This document shows positions 7,236 to 56,150 of a DNA stretch of 64,000 nt, one piece after another (positions within the stretch are counted from its first letter, which is position 1; the number at the start of each line of letters is the position of its first letter). This DNA is from Dictyostelium discoideum. Taxonomy: Eukaryota. The stretch is taken from NCBI GenBank assembly GCA_000004695.1, contig CM000151.3, positions 4,448,001 to 4,512,000 of the forward strand. The letters run 5' to 3'. The position numbers were made by a program, and so were the translations under genes. The notes below the pieces were generated by a model. The model was given only the letters and a program-made list of their open reading frames with translations. It did no database searches and had not been told where the DNA came from.

Positions 7236-8715
<1,480 letters not shown>

Positions 8716-9215: not shown

Positions 9216-27690
<18,475 letters not shown>

Positions 27691-36018: not shown

Positions 36019-39000
36019 TTAAATTGTTTGGATTGTGGGGAAATTATTTATAAATAAATTAGATAAATCTTGATAACCAAGAGATTGAGATAAACTATAC
36101 CATTGTTTAACATCATTAATTTTTATAGAAGCTTTACAATTATTAATAAAAAAAGTAAAGAATTCAATATGATTTAATTCAACCAAAGAATGAATAGATT
36201 GTAATGAACTATCAATAATAATTTTATCTTTTAATTTACAATCATTTAACATCCAATCTAATAAATCAATACGTAATACTTGAATTGCTGATTTAAAAAC
36301 TAAATTAATATCTAAACAATTATTATTATTATTATTATCATTATTATTTGAAATACAAAACTCATTTATAAAACGATTTAATAATTGTTTATCTTTAAAA
36401 TTACCAAATATTTTTGATAAAACTTGTAGTAAAATATTTGAAGTATTATTATTATTATTATCATTATGAAGTTGGTCTTGATTTTGATCTTGATCTTGTT
36501 GTAATTGTTGTTTTAAAAATCCTTTAAAACATTTAAATAATGGTTCAATTTCACCAATATTACCAAAGAAATAAACATCTTTTTCATTATCTGAAAATAC
36601 ATCAATTCTAATATGTTGATGAGTAAATAAACGTGGTTGTAAATTATTATAATTTTCATTTTCATTTTCATTTTCTTGAAATAATGATTGTAATTTTAAA
36701 AGTAATTGAGTTTCACTAGAATTAAAAATTGAATCAAATGAAAATTCAGGTTTCATTAAACATTGAGATAAGAAAGGATCTTGTAAAAGTCTTGATGAAT
36801 CTTTATCTTTTTTTTTAATTAAATAATTAAATCTTTCTTTTGAAATTATAAAAGATGAAATTTTAATTGATTTAATTGTTAAATAATTAAAAGTTTCAAA
36901 TAAATCTTCAGAAACTTTATAATTACCAATTGATAATAAAATATCTCTAACTAATTTAATATTATAATAATTTGAATCAAAACATTGTATAATAGTTTTA
37001 TATAAATGTTCAAATAATGGTACTAATATATCATTATAATAATCATCACCACCACCACTACCATTACCACTACCACCTTTTTTAAAATTCCAATTTTTTA
37101 AAATTAATTCTAAAACTTTAAAAACCAATTGAAATTGAAATTTATTTTTATAAATTTTCTTTCTAAATCCATCATCTTCAGCAACTTTATAAAAACAATA
37201 TTGTTGAGTTTGATAAACGAAACCATTGATATCATTCAATTTAATTGAATCAATATTGCTATTAAAATTTAATGATGATAAAATTATTAATGCTTCTTCA
37301 AATTTATTTTCAAATATAAAATTTATTACCAACATAATTGATTCATTTTGAAATTGATTATAATTTATATTTAATTGTTTTAATAATTCAATTTTATTTT
37401 CACCCTCTAAAGTAACATGTAATGATTTAAATAATGAAGAAATATATAAAATCCAAGTTTGACAATCGAAAATTCTATAATTTGATTGATTTAGGTAATC
37501 GAAAAATTCAATAATTTTATCTTTTTCAATTTGATTTGTAATTTCATTAAAAAATTCTTTTTTATAATCAGTTTTTGCTAAAATTTCTCTTGAACCAAAG
37601 TTTTTAAATACAACACCAATTTTTAAATCCAATTCTTTTAAAATCTTTAAATTAAATGTTAATAATGATTTTAAAAATGGTATTGAAAAACAATAATAAT
37701 CTGGAATATGTTTAAATAATGATTTAAAATAATTTGAAATTGAAATTGAATTATTATTATCATCATCATCGCTCTCTAATAAATTCATTGAAATTGGTAA
37801 AAATTTAATTTCAAGTTTAATTGATGGATTTCTAATTTTAAATATAAAATCAACATCTTGTTTACATTGTATTGTTGATAAGTATTGATTTAAGCCATAG
37901 TATTCAATTTGATTATCTCTATAATTAGGTAAAATAACATTTTCATAATACCATTGATATTTTTTCATTGGTGATATTTCACCAACAGGGAAATCAATAT
38001 TAATAAAACTCTCTCTGTATGGGAATCCTTTAATATTTGTTACTTTTTCAACCAAGTCAACTGAAAATTCTCTATAGTATAATAAACAATTTGCAAATGT
38101 TGGCCAAAATAAAAATTGTAAACCTGTATCTTTTTTAAGATTTTCTTGAGACCTATATTGGCAATATTGATTTATGAATTCGATTATTCTATTCTCACTT
38201 TCTTTACTACCATCAAATAGTTTATCCTTATATGTATAATAATTATTTAAATATTTCTCTTTTAAAGTATTTGACCATTCCGGTGAGATTTTACTTTGTC
38301 TACTCAAACTTTTACTTGTTAAATATTTTAAAGCATTGATTGAAAGTAATGAAAATGTATATTCATAAACAACTGAATCAAATAATGGTAAATCTGCTAT
38401 AACATCATCATAATCTACTAAATATTCAAAATATAATAATTCTTTATCAATTGATGACATTGGTGATTTAAGTATTAAAATTTTTAATTTTTTTATATAA
38501 TCTTCATTATCACTACCACTACCATCAATTTTATTATTTAATAATAAATTATAATAAATTAATTCTTGAATTGATTTATCTTTTAAAGTTTTAATAATTT
38601 TATCAACAACAATTGAACAAATATTAGTTTCATTATCATTTTCTCTATCTAATAAATTCATTTCTAATAATTTTATTGAAATTGTTAAATTTGATTTAAT
38701 ATTTAATAAATGATTTAAATGAATTTTTTCCATTTCTTTAAAATTAATTTCATTATATAATCCTTTATTTAATACCCATTGAATAATATCTATTGATCCA
38801 TTTATTGTTGATAATTTTAATGATTTATTTTCAATCTTTCCTTTTAATAATTTACTACCACTACTACCAATACTATTTATTATAATTTCATTATATAAAT
38901 ATTCCATAACTTCAATTGAAGATGAATTTGATAAAGCATATTCAATAGTTGTTGAATCAATTTCAAATTTTTTATAATATATATCTAATTCTTTATTTAT

Positions 39001-39468
39001 TTCATTTTCTTTATCTGATTTTTGAGTTTTAAATAAATATTTTATAAAATTTAAATTATTAAATTTAATTGATAATTCTAATAAATTTGAAATTTTAAAT
39101 AAAATTTCTCTTTTTAAATTAAATAATAATAATAATGATTCTTCTTGTGATTCGTGTGATTGTTGTTGTTGTTGTGATTGTTGTTGTGATTGTGATTGTT
39201 GTTGTTTTATTAATACTTTTTTAAATAATAATTCTATACCATCTCTATTAATTTGAACAAATTCTCCACTTTTTAATTTATAATTTAATAATGGAAATTG
39301 ATTTTTTTCAACCATAAATTTTAAAGAAGAGATATGTTTAAATTTTATTCTATTCAAGTGATTGTATTGAGAGAGTTCATCATAGTTTAATTTATCATTT
39401 GAAATATGATAAAATATTTTATTTCTTAAAAATAAATTTTTATATACTTTAAAAAAGAGTTCATCCAT
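36019..39468 (-). CDS. Hypothetical protein, 1,149 aa, with Asn/Gln-rich low-complexity segments. I could not assign a domain by eye.
   Basis: A long single ORF with an ATG in an A-rich context: MDELFFKVYKNLFLRNKIFYHISNDKLNYDELSQYNHLNRIKFKHISSLKFMVEKNQFPLL... Codon usage is typical for this genome. Confidence 0.7.
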   Translation of the reverse strand: MDELFFKVYKNLFLRNKIFYHISNDKLNYDELSQYNHLNRIKFKHISSLKFMVEKNQFPLLNYKLKSGEFVQINRDGIELLFKKVLIKQQQSQSQQQSQQQQQSHESQEESLLLLFNLKREILFKISNLLELSIKFNNLNFIKYLFKTQKSDKENEINKELDIYYKKFEIDSTTIEYALSNSSSIEVMEYLYNEIIINSIGSSGSKLLKGKIENKSLKLSTINGSIDIIQWVLNKGLYNEINFKEMEKIHLNHLLNIKSNLTISIKLLEMNLLDRENDNETNICSIVVDKIIKTLKDKSIQELIYYNLLLNNKIDGSGSDNEDYIKKLKILILKSPMSSIDKELLYFEYLVDYDDVIADLPLFDSVVYEYTFSLLSINALKYLTSKSLSRQSKISPEWSNTLKEKYLNNYYTYKDKLFDGSKESENRIIEFINQYCQYRSQENLKKDTGLQFLFWPTFANCLLYYREFSVDLVEKVTNIKGFPYRESFINIDFPVGEISPMKKYQWYYENVILPNYRDNQIEYYGLNQYLSTIQCKQDVDFIFKIRNPSIKLEIKFLPISMNLLESDDDDNNNSISISNYFKSLFKHIPDYYCFSIPFLKSLLTFNLKILKELDLKIGVVFKNFGSREILAKTDYKKEFFNEITNQIEKDKIIEFFDYLNQSNYRIFDCQTWILYISSLFKSLHVTLEGENKIELLKQLNINYNQFQNESIMLVINFIFENKFEEALIILSSLNFNSNIDSIKLNDINGFVYQTQQYCFYKVAEDDGFRKKIYKNKFQFQLVFKVLELILKNWNFKKGGSGNGSGGGDDYYNDILVPLFEHLYKTIIQCFDSNYYNIKLVRDILLSIGNYKVSEDLFETFNYLTIKSIKISSFIISKERFNYLIKKKDKDSSRLLQDPFLSQCLMKPEFSFDSIFNSSETQLLLKLQSLFQENENENENYNNLQPRLFTHQHIRIDVFSDNEKDVYFFGNIGEIEPLFKCFKGFLKQQLQQDQDQNQDQLHNDNNNNNTSNILLQVLSKIFGNFKDKQLLNRFINEFCISNNNDNNNNNNCLDINLVFKSAIQVLRIDLLDWMLNDCKLKDKIIIDSSLQSIHSLVELNHIEFFTFFINNCKASIKINDVKQWYSLSQSLGYQDLSNLFINNFPTIQTI

Positions 39469-43791: not shown

Positions 43792-45969
43792 ATGAATGAA
43801 GCAAATTGGAAATCATTGATTGAAAATTTATTACCAATTTATAATAAAAATGGAAATGATTGTAGTAAAATTAAAACAATGAGTTTGGGAAAGAGAATGA
43901 TTTCAAGAAATTATTTAAATCATTTATATAAAGAAAATGGTGATATTTTAGAAACTATTGAACAAGATCAAATCAAATCTAATCCATTTTTAAAGGATGA
44001 AATATCAAATCAAAAAATTATTTTTAAATTTCAACCCCAATTTCCATCAATGGAATTAACAATTTTAAATTTTGTTAAATTATTATTTAAAGATGTTGAT
44101 GATATTAATAATGATGGTGAATTATCAATTATACCATTCTCTGAATTTGGAATAATTAAATCAATGAAAAAAAATGAAAAAAACAATTATCATCAATTAT
44201 TACTACAATATCAACCAAAAACAAATAATGATGATATAACAACAACATTATTAAATGTTTTAAAAAGTGATGATAAAGATGAAAAATTAAAAAAATTAGA
44301 TTCTTATTGTTTTTCAAAATTAATAATAACAACTATTTTAACTAATCCTGCAAATGGTTGCTTTGAAAATTATTTATTTACACCAATGAAAAATGGTAAT
44401 TTTAAATTGGTTTCAATGAATAATGAATTATCATTTGTACCAGAATCAACACAAACTATTAAAACTGGTATATTTTCAAGTGAAATTTCATTTTGTGTAA
44501 ATACTTGTTTATTTATGTTAGAGCAAATGCATAACCCAATTGATAAAGAAATTATTAATAAATTGAAATCATTAGATGTTTTAACATTTTTAAAAGAATG
44601 GATATCATCAATTGGTGTAATTAATAAACAAATTAATAATTTAATTCATAAAGATGGTAATTGTGAAATTGGCAAAAAGAAACCATTCATTCATAGATCT
44701 GAAAATAATAAAACTTATCCATTAACTAAATTTCCAGAAGGTTCAATTAAATTATTATATTCAAAATTAATTAGATTAAAAGAAGTTTTAATTAAAGAAT
44801 CAACTTCATTATCATCAAAGAAACCAATTACATTTTGGAAACTTTTAACAATTTTAGAACCATTAATTTCAAACCGTATGTATTTAAATAGAACTTGTTA
44901 TACAACAAAAGTATCAGTTATTGAAAATTATAATTGGTATTTAAGAACTCAAGATATTTCAAGAAATCATGAACCAATGCCATTAATATCATCAAAAATT
45001 AAAGTTTCAAGGGGAATAAATAAAAAAAATAAAAATCAATATGGTTTAAAAGATTTAGAAGTAATTGATGAAGAAATTACATTTTATAAAAATATTTCAT
45101 CAAATACTATGGATGTTGATTTAAAAAATTTAAAATCAAAATTAACAACGACAGCATCATATCCTTTTCAACCAATTTCAATTTTATTTGAAGAATTTTT
45201 AAACGGTAAATCTAATTTTAATGAATCACTAAGCACTTCACAAAAATCAATATTTTATGAACAAGTTTTGCCACTTTCAAAAGATTTAAGATATTTAAAA
45301 TTTTTAAATAATGAATATTTAACAAATAAATTATTAATATCTTCACAATTTTTAAATGGTTTAAAAAGATTGGAAATTTGTGATTGCAAAAATCTTAAAC
45401 AATTATCAAATGGTTCTGATGAATTAAAATTACCAACAGTTTCTAAAATGTTGGTTTCCAATTGCACAAATTTGAAAACAATTAATATTTTCACATTAAG
45501 TTTAAAAACATTAAATATTAAAAATTGTGAAAATCTTAAAGAATTTCAAGTTTATGCACCAGTTTTAGAGAAATTAAAATTACAATCAACATTGATAACT
45601 TCAAAATTATTATTAAAATTAGATGAATCAAAGTTTTTAAAATATATTAATTTTTCAAATTCAACAATTAATGGTGTTTCAAAATCAATTGATAGTTTAT
45701 CAAATTCAATTTGTTTAGATGTATGGGAGAATCTAATTGAATTTAAAGCAATTAATTTAAAATCACTTTCAAAAATTACAATTTCAAAAGAATTAAAACA
45801 TTTAAAACTTTTAGATTTTAATGGTTGTTCAACATTGGTTGATATTTTTAATTTTAAAAGAAATGGAAATGGTCTAGTTCCTTCTTTAGAAATTTTAAAT
45901 TTAAATGGCACAACACTTGAAGATAATGAAAAACAATTAATAATTTTTAATAATTTAAAAAATAAATAA
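43792..45969 (+). CDS. Leucine-rich-repeat protein, 725 aa, with an N-terminal domain of unknown function.
   Basis: The C-terminal third is built of L-x-x-L-x-L-x-x-C/N-x-x-L units (LKRLEICDCKNLKQLSNGSDELKLPTVSKMLVSNCTNLKTINIFTLSLKTLNIKNCENLKEFQVYAPVLEKLKLQST...). The ATG is preceded by an A-run. Confidence 0.7.
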   Translation: MNEANWKSLIENLLPIYNKNGNDCSKIKTMSLGKRMISRNYLNHLYKENGDILETIEQDQIKSNPFLKDEISNQKIIFKFQPQFPSMELTILNFVKLLFKDVDDINNDGELSIIPFSEFGIIKSMKKNEKNNYHQLLLQYQPKTNNDDITTTLLNVLKSDDKDEKLKKLDSYCFSKLIITTILTNPANGCFENYLFTPMKNGNFKLVSMNNELSFVPESTQTIKTGIFSSEISFCVNTCLFMLEQMHNPIDKEIINKLKSLDVLTFLKEWISSIGVINKQINNLIHKDGNCEIGKKKPFIHRSENNKTYPLTKFPEGSIKLLYSKLIRLKEVLIKESTSLSSKKPITFWKLLTILEPLISNRMYLNRTCYTTKVSVIENYNWYLRTQDISRNHEPMPLISSKIKVSRGINKKNKNQYGLKDLEVIDEEITFYKNISSNTMDVDLKNLKSKLTTTASYPFQPISILFEEFLNGKSNFNESLSTSQKSIFYEQVLPLSKDLRYLKFLNNEYLTNKLLISSQFLNGLKRLEICDCKNLKQLSNGSDELKLPTVSKMLVSNCTNLKTINIFTLSLKTLNIKNCENLKEFQVYAPVLEKLKLQSTLITSKLLLKLDESKFLKYINFSNSTINGVSKSIDSLSNSICLDVWENLIEFKAINLKSLSKITISKELKHLKLLDFNGCSTLVDIFNFKRNGNGLVPSLEILNLNGTTLEDNEKQLIIFNNLKNK

Positions 45970-46013: not shown

Positions 46014-46496
46014 TTATGGATGAATTGAAGTCCAACCATCACCAAGTCTAAGAATGATTTCACCATTACCAGATGGTACTGGATTAACACCTGGGAATAA
46101 ATCATTTAAATTTAAATGATATGCATTGATTGTATTATTACATAATACAAAAACACAACCTGAATTTTGTAAACTTGTTAACATTGGTTGAAATTCTGGA
46201 TTTGAATTTAAATAAACATTATAACCTTTTCCAAATGCAACTAAAATTATCTCTAATCTATTAATTAATCTTGGATCTCTATAAGCATTATAGATATTTA
46301 TGAGTGTTGAATTAATTAAACCAAAATCATTAGTATCTAAAATGTACATTGTTTTATAGAGACTATGAATTGGTTTTGCTGGTTCAAATTTAACATCATT
46401 AACGACATTGATTGAATTTGTATTAATTATTGATGTTGATTTTGAAACATAAATTAATCCTAATATTAATATTAATAATAAAATTGTTGATTTCAT
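46014..46496 (-). CDS. Secreted DsrE/DsrF-like (YchN-fold) small protein, 160 aa, with an N-terminal signal peptide.
   Basis: MKSTILLLILILGLIYVSKS is a signal peptide. The core RLEIILVAFGKGYNVYLNSNPEFQPMLTSLQNSGCVFVLCNNTINAYHLNLNDLFPGVNPVPSGNGEIILRLGDGWTSI matches the DsrE/DsrF/YchN pattern (vv.F.GdGV.ll...l..l...Gv.f.vC.nsl...gl.....pGv..V.sg..el..l...Gw..I), including the conserved Cys. This is a motif-level resemblance only. Confidence 0.6.
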   Translation of the reverse strand: MKSTILLLILILGLIYVSKSTSIINTNSINVVNDVKFEPAKPIHSLYKTMYILDTNDFGLINSTLINIYNAYRDPRLINRLEIILVAFGKGYNVYLNSNPEFQPMLTSLQNSGCVFVLCNNTINAYHLNLNDLFPGVNPVPSGNGEIILRLGDGWTSIHP

Positions 46497-46957
46497 TTTT
46501 TTTTTTTTTTTTTCTTTTTTTTTTTTTTTTAATATTATTAGCTTTTAATTTTAGTTTTAAATAAAAAAAAAAAAATAAATAAAGTAATATATCGAAATTA
46601 TTTGTGGTTATACTATAAAATAAAAAATTGAAAAATAAAAAAAATTTCTGTTTAAAAAAAAAAAAAATAAAAAAATAAAAATAAAAAAAAAAATAAAAAA
46701 AAAATAAAAAAATATCATTGGATAGTTCCAAAGAATGAAACGTATTCCAAATTCTTTTTTTAATAATATAAAAAAAAACTAAAATAATAACACAAGATAC
46801 AAAAAAATAAGGTTGGTTGGAAAAATTTCACCACTCAAGTTGTGAAAAGTAATTTTATCTTTTTTTTTTTTTTGTAAAAAAAGAAATGTAAGAATTAGAA
46901 AAAAAAAAATAAAAAAAAATAATTAAAGAAAAAGAAATGGTTTTTTTTTTTTTTTAC

Positions 46958-48487
<1,530 letters not shown>

Positions 48488-51239: not shown

Positions 51240-56150
<4,911 letters not shown>

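Follow-up and report, generated by a model that had tools for sequence, protein, structure and literature searches.

A DsrE-family protein with a predicted signal peptide in Dictyostelium discoideum, of probable bacterial origin

How did a eukaryote come to carry a gene for an apparently secreted protein of the DsrE/DsrF/TusD type? The question is raised by a 160-amino-acid (aa) open reading frame (ORF) with an ATG start, taken from a mechanically compiled ORF list, in a 64-kb stretch of Dictyostelium discoideum DNA (contig CM000151.3, positions 4,448,001 to 4,512,000; hereafter the window). The translation of the ORF, at 46014..46496, is 100% identical to XP_644156 / Q86HR3, encoded by DDB_G0274465 of D. 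discoideum AX4, which bears the database label "hypothetical protein". With homologues at E-values from 1e-27 to 1e-99 and a genomic GC content of 22.7%, an ORF of this length is far beyond chance expectation. The initial annotation of the sequence had proposed a secreted protein with a sulfur-relay fold and, as a candidate explanation, horizontal acquisition. Below we present evidence from fold, distribution, phylogeny and genomic context, from which we regard the identity of the gene and its bacterial origin as highly likely. The features of the gene are as follows, all on the minus strand of the window.

46014..46496, minus strand: complete, intronless DDB_G0274465 coding sequence, 160 codons plus stop (ORF list, identity to XP_644156/Q86HR3, Pfam DsrE match)
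46437..46496, minus strand: predicted signal peptide, residues 1–20 (MKSTILLLILILGLIYVSKS), with probable cleavage after S20 (direct sequence reading)
46368..46436, minus strand: variable, probably disordered linker, residues 21–43 (model confidence about 60; length and sequence differ among orthologues)
46017..46367, minus strand: DsrE/YchN-fold domain, residues 44–160 (model confidence about 97; Foldseek match and phmmer alignment to 1l1s)
46305..46313, minus strand: predicted N-glycosylation sequon N62-S-T64 (N62 and T64 invariant in the dictyostelid alignment)
46155..46157, minus strand: codon of Cys114, a dictyostelid-specific second Cys (invariant in five dictyostelid sequences, Val in all bacterial sequences examined)
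46140..46142, minus strand: codon of Cys119, the invariant putative sulfur-binding Cys (junction of strand 115–119 and helix 120–125; alignments)

The protein matched the Pfam DsrE profile (PF02635) with an E-value of 2.8e-5 and 24.7 bits over profile positions 19–113 of 116, where the gathering cut-off is 22.7 bits. The margin over the cut-off is small, and matches to PDB sequences at 9e-11 and 2e-33 back the assignment. Searching the PDB with the single sequence (phmmer) aligned residues 47–160 to positions 4–113 of the MTH1491 chain (1l1s, E-value of 8.9e-11), followed by ST0148 (2pd2, 3.6e-7). With a profile of 27 sequences, the E-values of these two matches were 2.1e-33 and 2.6e-20. An AlphaFold2 (AF2) model built on the 27-sequence alignment had a predicted local distance difference test score (pLDDT, the model confidence given above) of about 97 for residues 41–160 and about 60 for residues 1–40, which comprise the leader and linker. 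The best Foldseek match of this model in the PDB was 1l1s, with a template modelling (TM) score of 0.94 on the target, a root-mean-square deviation of 1.3 Å and 30% identity; 2pd2 had a TM score of 0.83. All of the top ten matches have the DsrE fold (1l1s, 2pd2, the 2pd2-derived design 8uja, two chains of 3pnx, 3mc3, 2qs7, 1jx7, 2hy5 and 2fb6). By name, the proteins that follow 1l1s are ST0148, Swol_2425 ("DsrE"), SSO1125 (3MC3, DsrE3A), SSO1126 (2QS7, DsrE2B), YchN, DsrEFH and BT1422, after which only noise remained. NCBIfam contained no model for the amoeba protein or for its relative from Mucilaginibacter.

DDB_G0274465 is thus a DsrE-family member of the MTH1491/ST0148-like branch with the YchN/DsrE three-layer α/β fold, and both motifs of that branch, C-x-N-[TS] and SG.GE...GW, are present. 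The profile and fold searches, which had been proposed beforehand as the way to refute a DsrE assignment, both returned the family. MTH1491 and ST0148, structural-genomics proteins of unknown function, are its closest solved relatives and share with it the Cys in a C-[NSE]-N-[TS] motif and the C-terminal "SG.GE...GW" block. They differ in being archaeal and cytoplasmic, in lacking a leader and in their length of about 110 aa, whereas DDB_G0274465 has a signal peptide and linker, a "DPRL" insertion and the sequence "SGNGE". Our literature search for MTH1491 retrieved bioconjugation and folding papers only.

The DsrE/DsrF/TusD pattern named in the initial annotation therefore holds for family and fold, while membership of DsrEFH/TusBCD does not. 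DsrEFH/TusBCD and Escherichia coli YchN have the fold family (2hy5, 1jx7) and PF02635 in common with DDB_G0274465. The former are cytoplasmic hetero-hexamers (YchN is a homo-oligomer) with adjacent partner genes, in contrast to a protein with a secretory leader. We rejected DDB_G0274465 as a subunit of such a complex because its sequence is the only DsrE-like one in the window, so that partner paralogues are missing there, because of the leader, and because its identity to 2hy5 and 1jx7 is 10–13%.

The motifs that the initial annotation had singled out, a conserved Cys segment and the glycine motif "AFGKGYNVYL", proved to be real family signatures, since C119 and G91 are both invariant across 27 diverse family members. 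G91 lies in the glycine motif, and C119 is the second Cys in "GCVFVLCNNT". The other invariant residues in this alignment are D74, G145 and E146. Cys119 is also kept in every group of an alignment of more than 100 sequences and is matched by the Cys of MTH1491 and ST0148 in the sequence alignments. Its place at a strand-to-helix junction would correspond to that of the active-site Cys78 of DsrE/TusD. A 19-residue block around the "VPSGNGEI" motif (residues 133–151, LFPGVNPVPSGNGEIILRL) is identical in all dictyostelids, including a paralogue described below.

To determine how widespread the protein is in eukaryotes, we searched 5.8 billion protein clusters twice and 1.84 billion representatives once, exhaustively, with HMMER. 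Eukaryotic carriers were D. discoideum, D. cf. discoideum, D. citrinum, D. firmibasis, D. dimigraforme, D. purpureum and Polysphondylium violaceum, all in the family Dictyosteliaceae. One further member, a Joint Genome Institute (JGI) sequence, has 97% identity to the P. violaceum protein across the domain. Neither the cluster nor the representative searches, which cover predicted proteomes, found the protein in other eukaryotes or in other dictyostelid families. A dictyostelid-only profile matched dictyostelids at E-values of 6.5e-75 or lower; some 40 orders of magnitude weaker, the next match was to a Bacteroidota-type protein (7.9e-35). Among the 1.84 billion representatives, the dictyostelid cluster representative was the sole match at E ≤ 1e-30, and 16 matches reached E ≤ 1e-10.

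Ratios of nonsynonymous to synonymous substitution (dN/dS) of 0.23–0.43 among D. discoideum, D. purpureum and P. violaceum, whose synonymous sites are saturated, indicate purifying selection. The P. violaceum gene is intronless, as is that of D. purpureum (L087:5884-6411, GL870975.1), whose complete ORF of 175 aa includes a signal peptide and an extra His/Asn-rich insert in the linker (NHNRNHNRNHNNHKNHNN). The public D. purpureum model for this locus, DICPUDRAFT_22143, is labelled partial (136 aa), though the locus holds the full 175-aa ORF.

Relatives of DDB_G0274465 are encoded in 348 prokaryotic species genomes from several orders, in a scan that used one genome per species. The best 80, whose gene neighbourhoods we also retrieved, are almost all Bacteroidota. 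Their genera include Mucilaginibacter, Pedobacter, Pelobium, Hydrotalea, Hanamia, Compostibacter, Segetibacter, Flavisolibacter, Hymenobacter, Spirosoma, Chryseobacterium and Flavobacterium. Among these 80 loci, a label from outside Bacteroidota occurs once, on a metagenome-assembled genome named as Janthinobacterium lividum (L010, JBPBPL010000006.1, a 434-kb contig). This contig carries a typical Bacteroidota-type tsdA/dsrE-like gene pair with 65% identity to Mucilaginibacter TsdA, and it may be mis-binned or reflect a recent transfer.

Similarity to the dictyostelid proteins is graded across the bacterial groups. Mean identity is 45–46% for Sphingobacteriaceae and Chitinophagales (111–120 bits with group hidden Markov models), 42.7% for Flavobacteriales (94–104 bits) and 33.7% for leaderless, cytoplasmic MTH1491-like proteins (66–71 bits). 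Bacteroidota periplasmic proteins, for example from Mucilaginibacter, Pedobacter and Hydrotalea, labelled only "DsrE family protein", resemble DDB_G0274465 over their full length, leader included, at 36–50% identity. They share with it DPRL, VPSGNGEI(I/L)R...GW..HP and a single invariant Cys. The DPRL and VPSGNGEI signatures and the export leader, which characterise the Bacteroidota periplasmic clade, are all present in the amoeba protein. Within "SGNGE", N144 is found in virtually all Bacteroidota members and in all dictyostelids, whereas most other groups have M, Q, V or I.

The initial annotation had asked for a phylogeny with bacterial homologues. In our neighbour-joining tree (117 columns, 200 bootstraps), dictyostelids were monophyletic in 200/200 replicates, and their sister was sometimes a single sequence of Sphingobacteriaceae type and sometimes the Bacteroidota clade as a whole; the tree thus delivered the monophyly and not a fixed sister lineage. 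The simplest reading of the sequence data is a single transfer from a Bacteroidota donor into the stem of the Dictyosteliaceae, the donor probably having been most similar to Sphingobacteriaceae or Chitinophagales among soil Bacteroidota. The Dictyosteliaceae-only spread in eukaryotes, the Bacteroidota affinity and the dictyostelid monophyly all support the proposed horizontal acquisition.

Two other histories would produce a similar pattern: vertical inheritance of an ancient eukaryotic or amoebozoan gene that was lost nearly everywhere, or transfer from an amoeba to Bacteroidota. The shifting bacterial sister group and the full adaptation of the gene to Dictyostelium composition would fit either of them. 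Against both, no other eukaryote appeared in the 5.8-billion-cluster searches, which include EukProt among their sources, or in the 1.84-billion search. The bacterial family is also broad (348 species in several orders), deeply diverged and set in conserved operon contexts, and the dictyostelids form one tight clade that bears the Bacteroidota-specific N144. We consider these two histories very improbable.

Since the nearest non-amoeba relatives are soil bacteria that are eaten by amoebae, bacterial contamination or an assembly artefact also has to be weighed. The base composition speaks against it: DDB_G0274465 has a GC content of 24.2% and, at third codon positions (GC3), of 8.7%, close to the 7.4% of an adjoining 725-aa ORF and far from the 51% of the Mucilaginibacter homologue. 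The gene is embedded between an actin gene, immediately upstream, and this Dictyostelium-type 725-aa ORF on an 8.48-Mb contig. The order actin, dsrE-like gene and large ORF recurs in an independent assembly of D. cf. discoideum. Moreover, identity to any bacterial protein is only 36–50%, and the gene is found in more than seven species. Contamination is thereby effectively refuted, and the locus is a genuine Dictyostelium gene, integrated in the chromosome and fully AT-adapted. The suggested check of introns and codon usage likewise gave an intronless gene with host-like composition. A tblastx comparison of the window with the D. purpureum and P. violaceum loci revealed no flanking genes in common, so that synteny is established for the discoideum complex only.

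Alsmark et al. 2013 catalogued 61 prokaryote-to-Dictyostelium transfers and recorded 18 from an earlier Pfam-domain-based analysis in the genome paper (PMC4053834). Bacteroidetes/Chlorobi were the donors in only two of the assigned D. discoideum transfers (PMC4053834). The acquisition proposed here is of the same kind as those catalogued, in which a soil amoeba that feeds on bacteria has fixed a gene of bacterial origin (PMC4053834). Neither XP_644156 nor DDB_G0274465 was found in the text of the supplementary tables of that study (PMC4053834), and our literature search for horizontal transfer of DsrE to Dictyostelium retrieved only matches to DsRed. Public databases already contain the precomputed DsrE assignment and give the P. 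violaceum orthologue the name "DsrE family protein". The apparent novelty lies in the descent from Bacteroidota, in the Dictyosteliaceae-only distribution, in a leader of periplasmic ancestry and in the linkage to tsdA and soxB-like genes.

Direct reading of the N-terminus agrees with the signal peptide first proposed for the 160-aa ORF. The leader has the layout MKS-TILLLILILGLIYV-SKS, followed by T after the probable cleavage site. It thus has a charged n-region, an uncharged, Leu/Ile-rich h-region of 14 residues and a c-region with small residues at −3 and −1. The AF2 model places a low-confidence helix (residues 5–15) inside it. Equivalent hydrophobic leaders are present in all dictyostelid orthologues and in the bacterial relatives. 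Because the Bacteroidota relatives, of about 150 aa, carry typical Sec leaders ending in ...A-x-A/AQ, we consider export to be ancestral rather than a eukaryotic invention. Secretion as such would then be no novelty of the eukaryote.

The fairly long h-region (about 14 residues) could also point to a signal anchor or an organellar targeting sequence, which would place the protein on a membrane or in an organelle. We judge this quite improbable. Small −3/−1 residues follow the h-region (S-K-S in D. discoideum, A-T-S and S-F-S in orthologues), the donor proteins reach the periplasm by Sec export, and the conserved N-x-T sequon fits passage through the lumen of the endoplasmic reticulum. By sequence reading, the protein, which ends in ...SIHP, has no KDEL/HDEL-type motif, second hydrophobic segment or membrane anchor.

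To obtain clues to function, we analysed the neighbourhoods of the 80 Bacteroidota-type loci. Two Mucilaginibacter neighbourhoods, unrelated in other respects, have the dsrE-like gene 13–14 bp downstream of a gene for a di-haem cytochrome c of 335 aa. The cytochrome matches Allochromatium vinosum TsdA at 6e-44 and retains the motif "DCFERSL", which contains the haem-1 Cys ligand. TsdA interconverts thiosulfate and tetrathionate. A TsdA homologue is encoded immediately upstream on the same strand in 56/80 loci. Less frequent neighbours are a SoxB-like gene immediately downstream (8/80), an upstream metallo-beta-lactamase/rhodanese fusion with a weak match to Blh-type persulfide dioxygenase (5/80) and an upstream ResA/TlpA-like thioredoxin gene (4/80). 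None of these four partners is present in 11/80 loci, 4 of which are on truncated contigs. The coordinates of the pair and of the alternative clusters are as follows.

L001:6980-8456, L005:6979-8462 and 56/80 of loci L006-L085: tsdA/dsrE-like pair, genes tens of bp apart
L054:2621-5880, L027:2488-5609, L047:3399-5891 and L073:3289-5800: clusters of metallo-beta-lactamase-rhodanese, DsrE-like and SoxB-like genes, or of TlpA/ResA-like, DsrE-like and SoxB-like genes

SoxB hydrolyses carrier-bound cysteine S-thiosulfonate. The SoxB-like proteins score 268–309 bits with TIGR04486, which is by far their best family match and is below its equivalog cut-off of 550 bits; their best PDB match is SoxB (2wdc). 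Because they are short (406–488 aa) and fall well below this cut-off, they may form a distinct thiosulfohydrolase-like subfamily. No description of the tsdA/dsrE-like pairing was found in our literature searches, in which results for Bacteroidota TsdA were dominated by taxonomy papers.

A further clue comes from DsrE3A, the sole close fold relative with characterised biochemistry, a small Cys-dependent protein whose representative SSO1125 (3MC3) ranked fifth in our Foldseek search (E-value of 4.4e-5). DsrE3A of Metallosphaera cuprina (Mcup_0681) acquires a Cys-S-thiosulfonate in a reaction that is specific for tetrathionate (PMC4175335). Its substrate is thus the product of the TsdA that is encoded beside the bacterial relatives. 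The DsrE3A family is defined by the motif Cys-X7-Cys and by its gene being linked to tusA / sHdr (Liu et al. 2014, PMC4175335). DsrE3A has only about 15% identity to DDB_G0274465. It is cytoplasmic, carries the Cys-X7-Cys motif and works with TusA and sHdr, and none of these properties apply to the amoeba protein. We therefore rejected membership of DsrE3A: DDB_G0274465 has C114-x4-C119, in which the second Cys is the conserved one, instead of Cys-X7-Cys, and tusA/hdr genes are absent nearby. Given the TsdA and SoxB-like neighbours and the tetrathionate chemistry of DsrE3A, the most economical function for the Bacteroidota clade would be that of a periplasmic carrier of Cys-thiosulfonate or sulfane sulfur.

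These observations suggest the following scenario. An ancestor of the Dictyosteliaceae would have gained the gene horizontally from a soil bacterium near Sphingobacteriaceae or Chitinophagales. The donor protein would have been a periplasmic, single-domain member of the MTH1491 branch with one invariant Cys. Its gene would usually have been co-transcribed with a TsdA-type gene and otherwise with SoxB-like, persulfide-dioxygenase/rhodanese-like or TlpA-like genes. By analogy with DsrE3A, the donor protein most likely holds thiosulfonate or sulfane sulfur on this Cys. The amoeba protein is most likely soluble and either secreted or in the endolysosomal lumen, where it may still bind tetrathionate, polythionates or persulfides, for example from prey bacteria, on Cys119. 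This proposal draws on the signal peptide, the lack of a retention signal or anchor, the conserved sequon and the conserved active-site region. We infer both the sulfur-binding chemistry, in bacteria and amoeba, and the physiological role. The retention of sulfur-carrier chemistry in the amoeba is, in our estimate, about evenly balanced. The combined account, bacterial transfer plus a secreted or lumenal sulfur carrier, is somewhat probable.

Several points weigh against this account. Neighbour joining puts the long dictyostelid branch either inside or beside the Bacteroidota clade. The absence from other dictyostelid groups is a result for the predicted proteomes in a protein collection, and the predicted secretion of the protein is read from its sequence. 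A second sequon, N120-N-T122, directly adjoins Cys119, and glycosylation there could block sulfur transfer. The TsdA-like and SoxB-like partners are absent from the 64-kb window and c-type cytochromes are not known to mature in the secretory pathway of eukaryotes, so the amoeba protein would act outside the setting typical of its relatives and perhaps in a changed role. Our literature search found no experiment or expression data for DDB_G0274465 / Q86HR3.

The main rival explanation follows from such a change: fold and Cys were kept while the protein was repurposed away from sulfur trafficking, for secreted binding, a structural role, signalling or thiol-disulfide redox through C114/C119. The initial annotation had named repurposing, as a small redox or sulfur carrier, beside horizontal acquisition. 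The lack of a bacterial partner gene in the window would fit, as would two features that seem to be new since the transfer. Whereas the Bacteroidota genes stand in sulfur-oxidation pairs or clusters and encode Val at position 114, the amoeba gene stands alone beside actin and encodes Cys114. The position of N62, in the conserved sequon, is mostly K, R or T in Bacteroidota. As read from the alignments, Cys114 and the N62 sequon are gains that were fixed after the transfer; N62-x-T64 is itself a predicted glycosylation site.

A third point in favour of repurposing comes from D. cf. discoideum (GCA_054859235.1), where two tandem dsrE-like genes lie between actin and the large ORF (L088:6421-6903 and L088:8001-8474), in contrast to one copy at the AX4 locus. 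The extra copy, P0002, is 79% identical and differs from the AX4 gene by 30 nonsynonymous and 2 synonymous changes, which suggests functional diversification. Its NG86 omega is about 4 against AX4 and about 2.4 against its own neighbour copy, ratios of a kind that extreme AT bias inflates. These values hint at rapid diversification after duplication.

On the other side, the family-invariant residues and the 19-residue block are strictly kept in every dictyostelid, the paralogue included, as retained ancestral chemistry predicts. An intramolecular C114–C119 disulfide was judged unlikely from the secondary structure of the AF2 model: the geometry is unfavourable because the two residues sit at opposite ends of one β-strand (115–119), which would disfavour a C114/C119 redox pair. 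We consider repurposing to a non-sulfur role unlikely, and prefer the account of a transferred carrier that may have kept its chemistry.

The remainder of the window has the base composition of typical Dictyostelium DNA (22.7% GC) and contains two actin genes and a giant VPS13-family ORF; no tRNAs were found in it. Its other main features are the following.

7464-8594, plus strand, and 47093-48223, minus strand: actin genes, 376 aa each (Pfam score of 506.2 bits for both)
10478-27085, minus strand: VPS13-family lipid-transfer giant, a single ORF of 5535 codons (N-terminal part matches VPS13_N with 1039 bits)
36019-39468, minus strand: 1149-aa ORF, no Pfam match at E ≤ 1e-5
43792-45969, plus strand: 725-aa ORF, no Pfam match at E ≤ 1e-5
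51240-56150, plus strand: 1636-aa ORF, no Pfam match at E ≤ 1e-5

Because their Pfam scores are equal, the two actin genes, one of which is the upstream neighbour of the dsrE-like gene, probably have the same or almost the same sequence and belong to the large actin family of Dictyostelium. The VPS13-family ORF has no relation to the dsrE-like gene. The 725-aa ORF, with a leucine-rich C-terminal half, is convergent with the dsrE-like gene, about 45 bp separating the stop codons. Upstream of the dsrE-like gene, an intergenic stretch of about 600 bp (46497-47092) consists mostly of long poly-T/poly-A runs, as is typical of Dictyostelium promoters.

Although dozens of bacterial acquisitions are already on record for Dictyostelium (PMC4053834), this one, if correct, would be a cleanly datable transfer, to the Dictyosteliaceae ancestor, from Bacteroidota, a donor group with few earlier Dictyostelium transfers. 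The very consistent tsdA/dsrE-like pair of soil Bacteroidota, with its soxB-like variants, is perhaps a more useful lead than the amoeba gene. It suggests that thiosulfate dehydrogenase has a partner in the periplasm that is still uncharacterised, and it provides a first functional hypothesis for the MTH1491 family, which has had a known structure and an orphan function since 2002. More speculatively, the tsdA/dsrE-like and dsrE-like/soxB-like modules might form an undescribed periplasmic pathway without SoxYZ, in which thiosulfonate is held on the single Cys of a DsrE-fold carrier. The amoebae would then have captured the carrier alone and would export it to the medium or the phagolysosome lumen to trap tetrathionate, polythionates and persulfides from killed prey. 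We put this extended proposal forward as doubtful. Were a sulfur-carrier role in the amoeba to hold, the protein would exemplify a DsrE-fold carrier that acts in a eukaryote beyond the cytoplasm, and it would do so in a model organism in which knockouts, tagging and feeding assays are routine. On the extended proposal, it would be a eukaryotic extracellular sulfur carrier without known counterpart.

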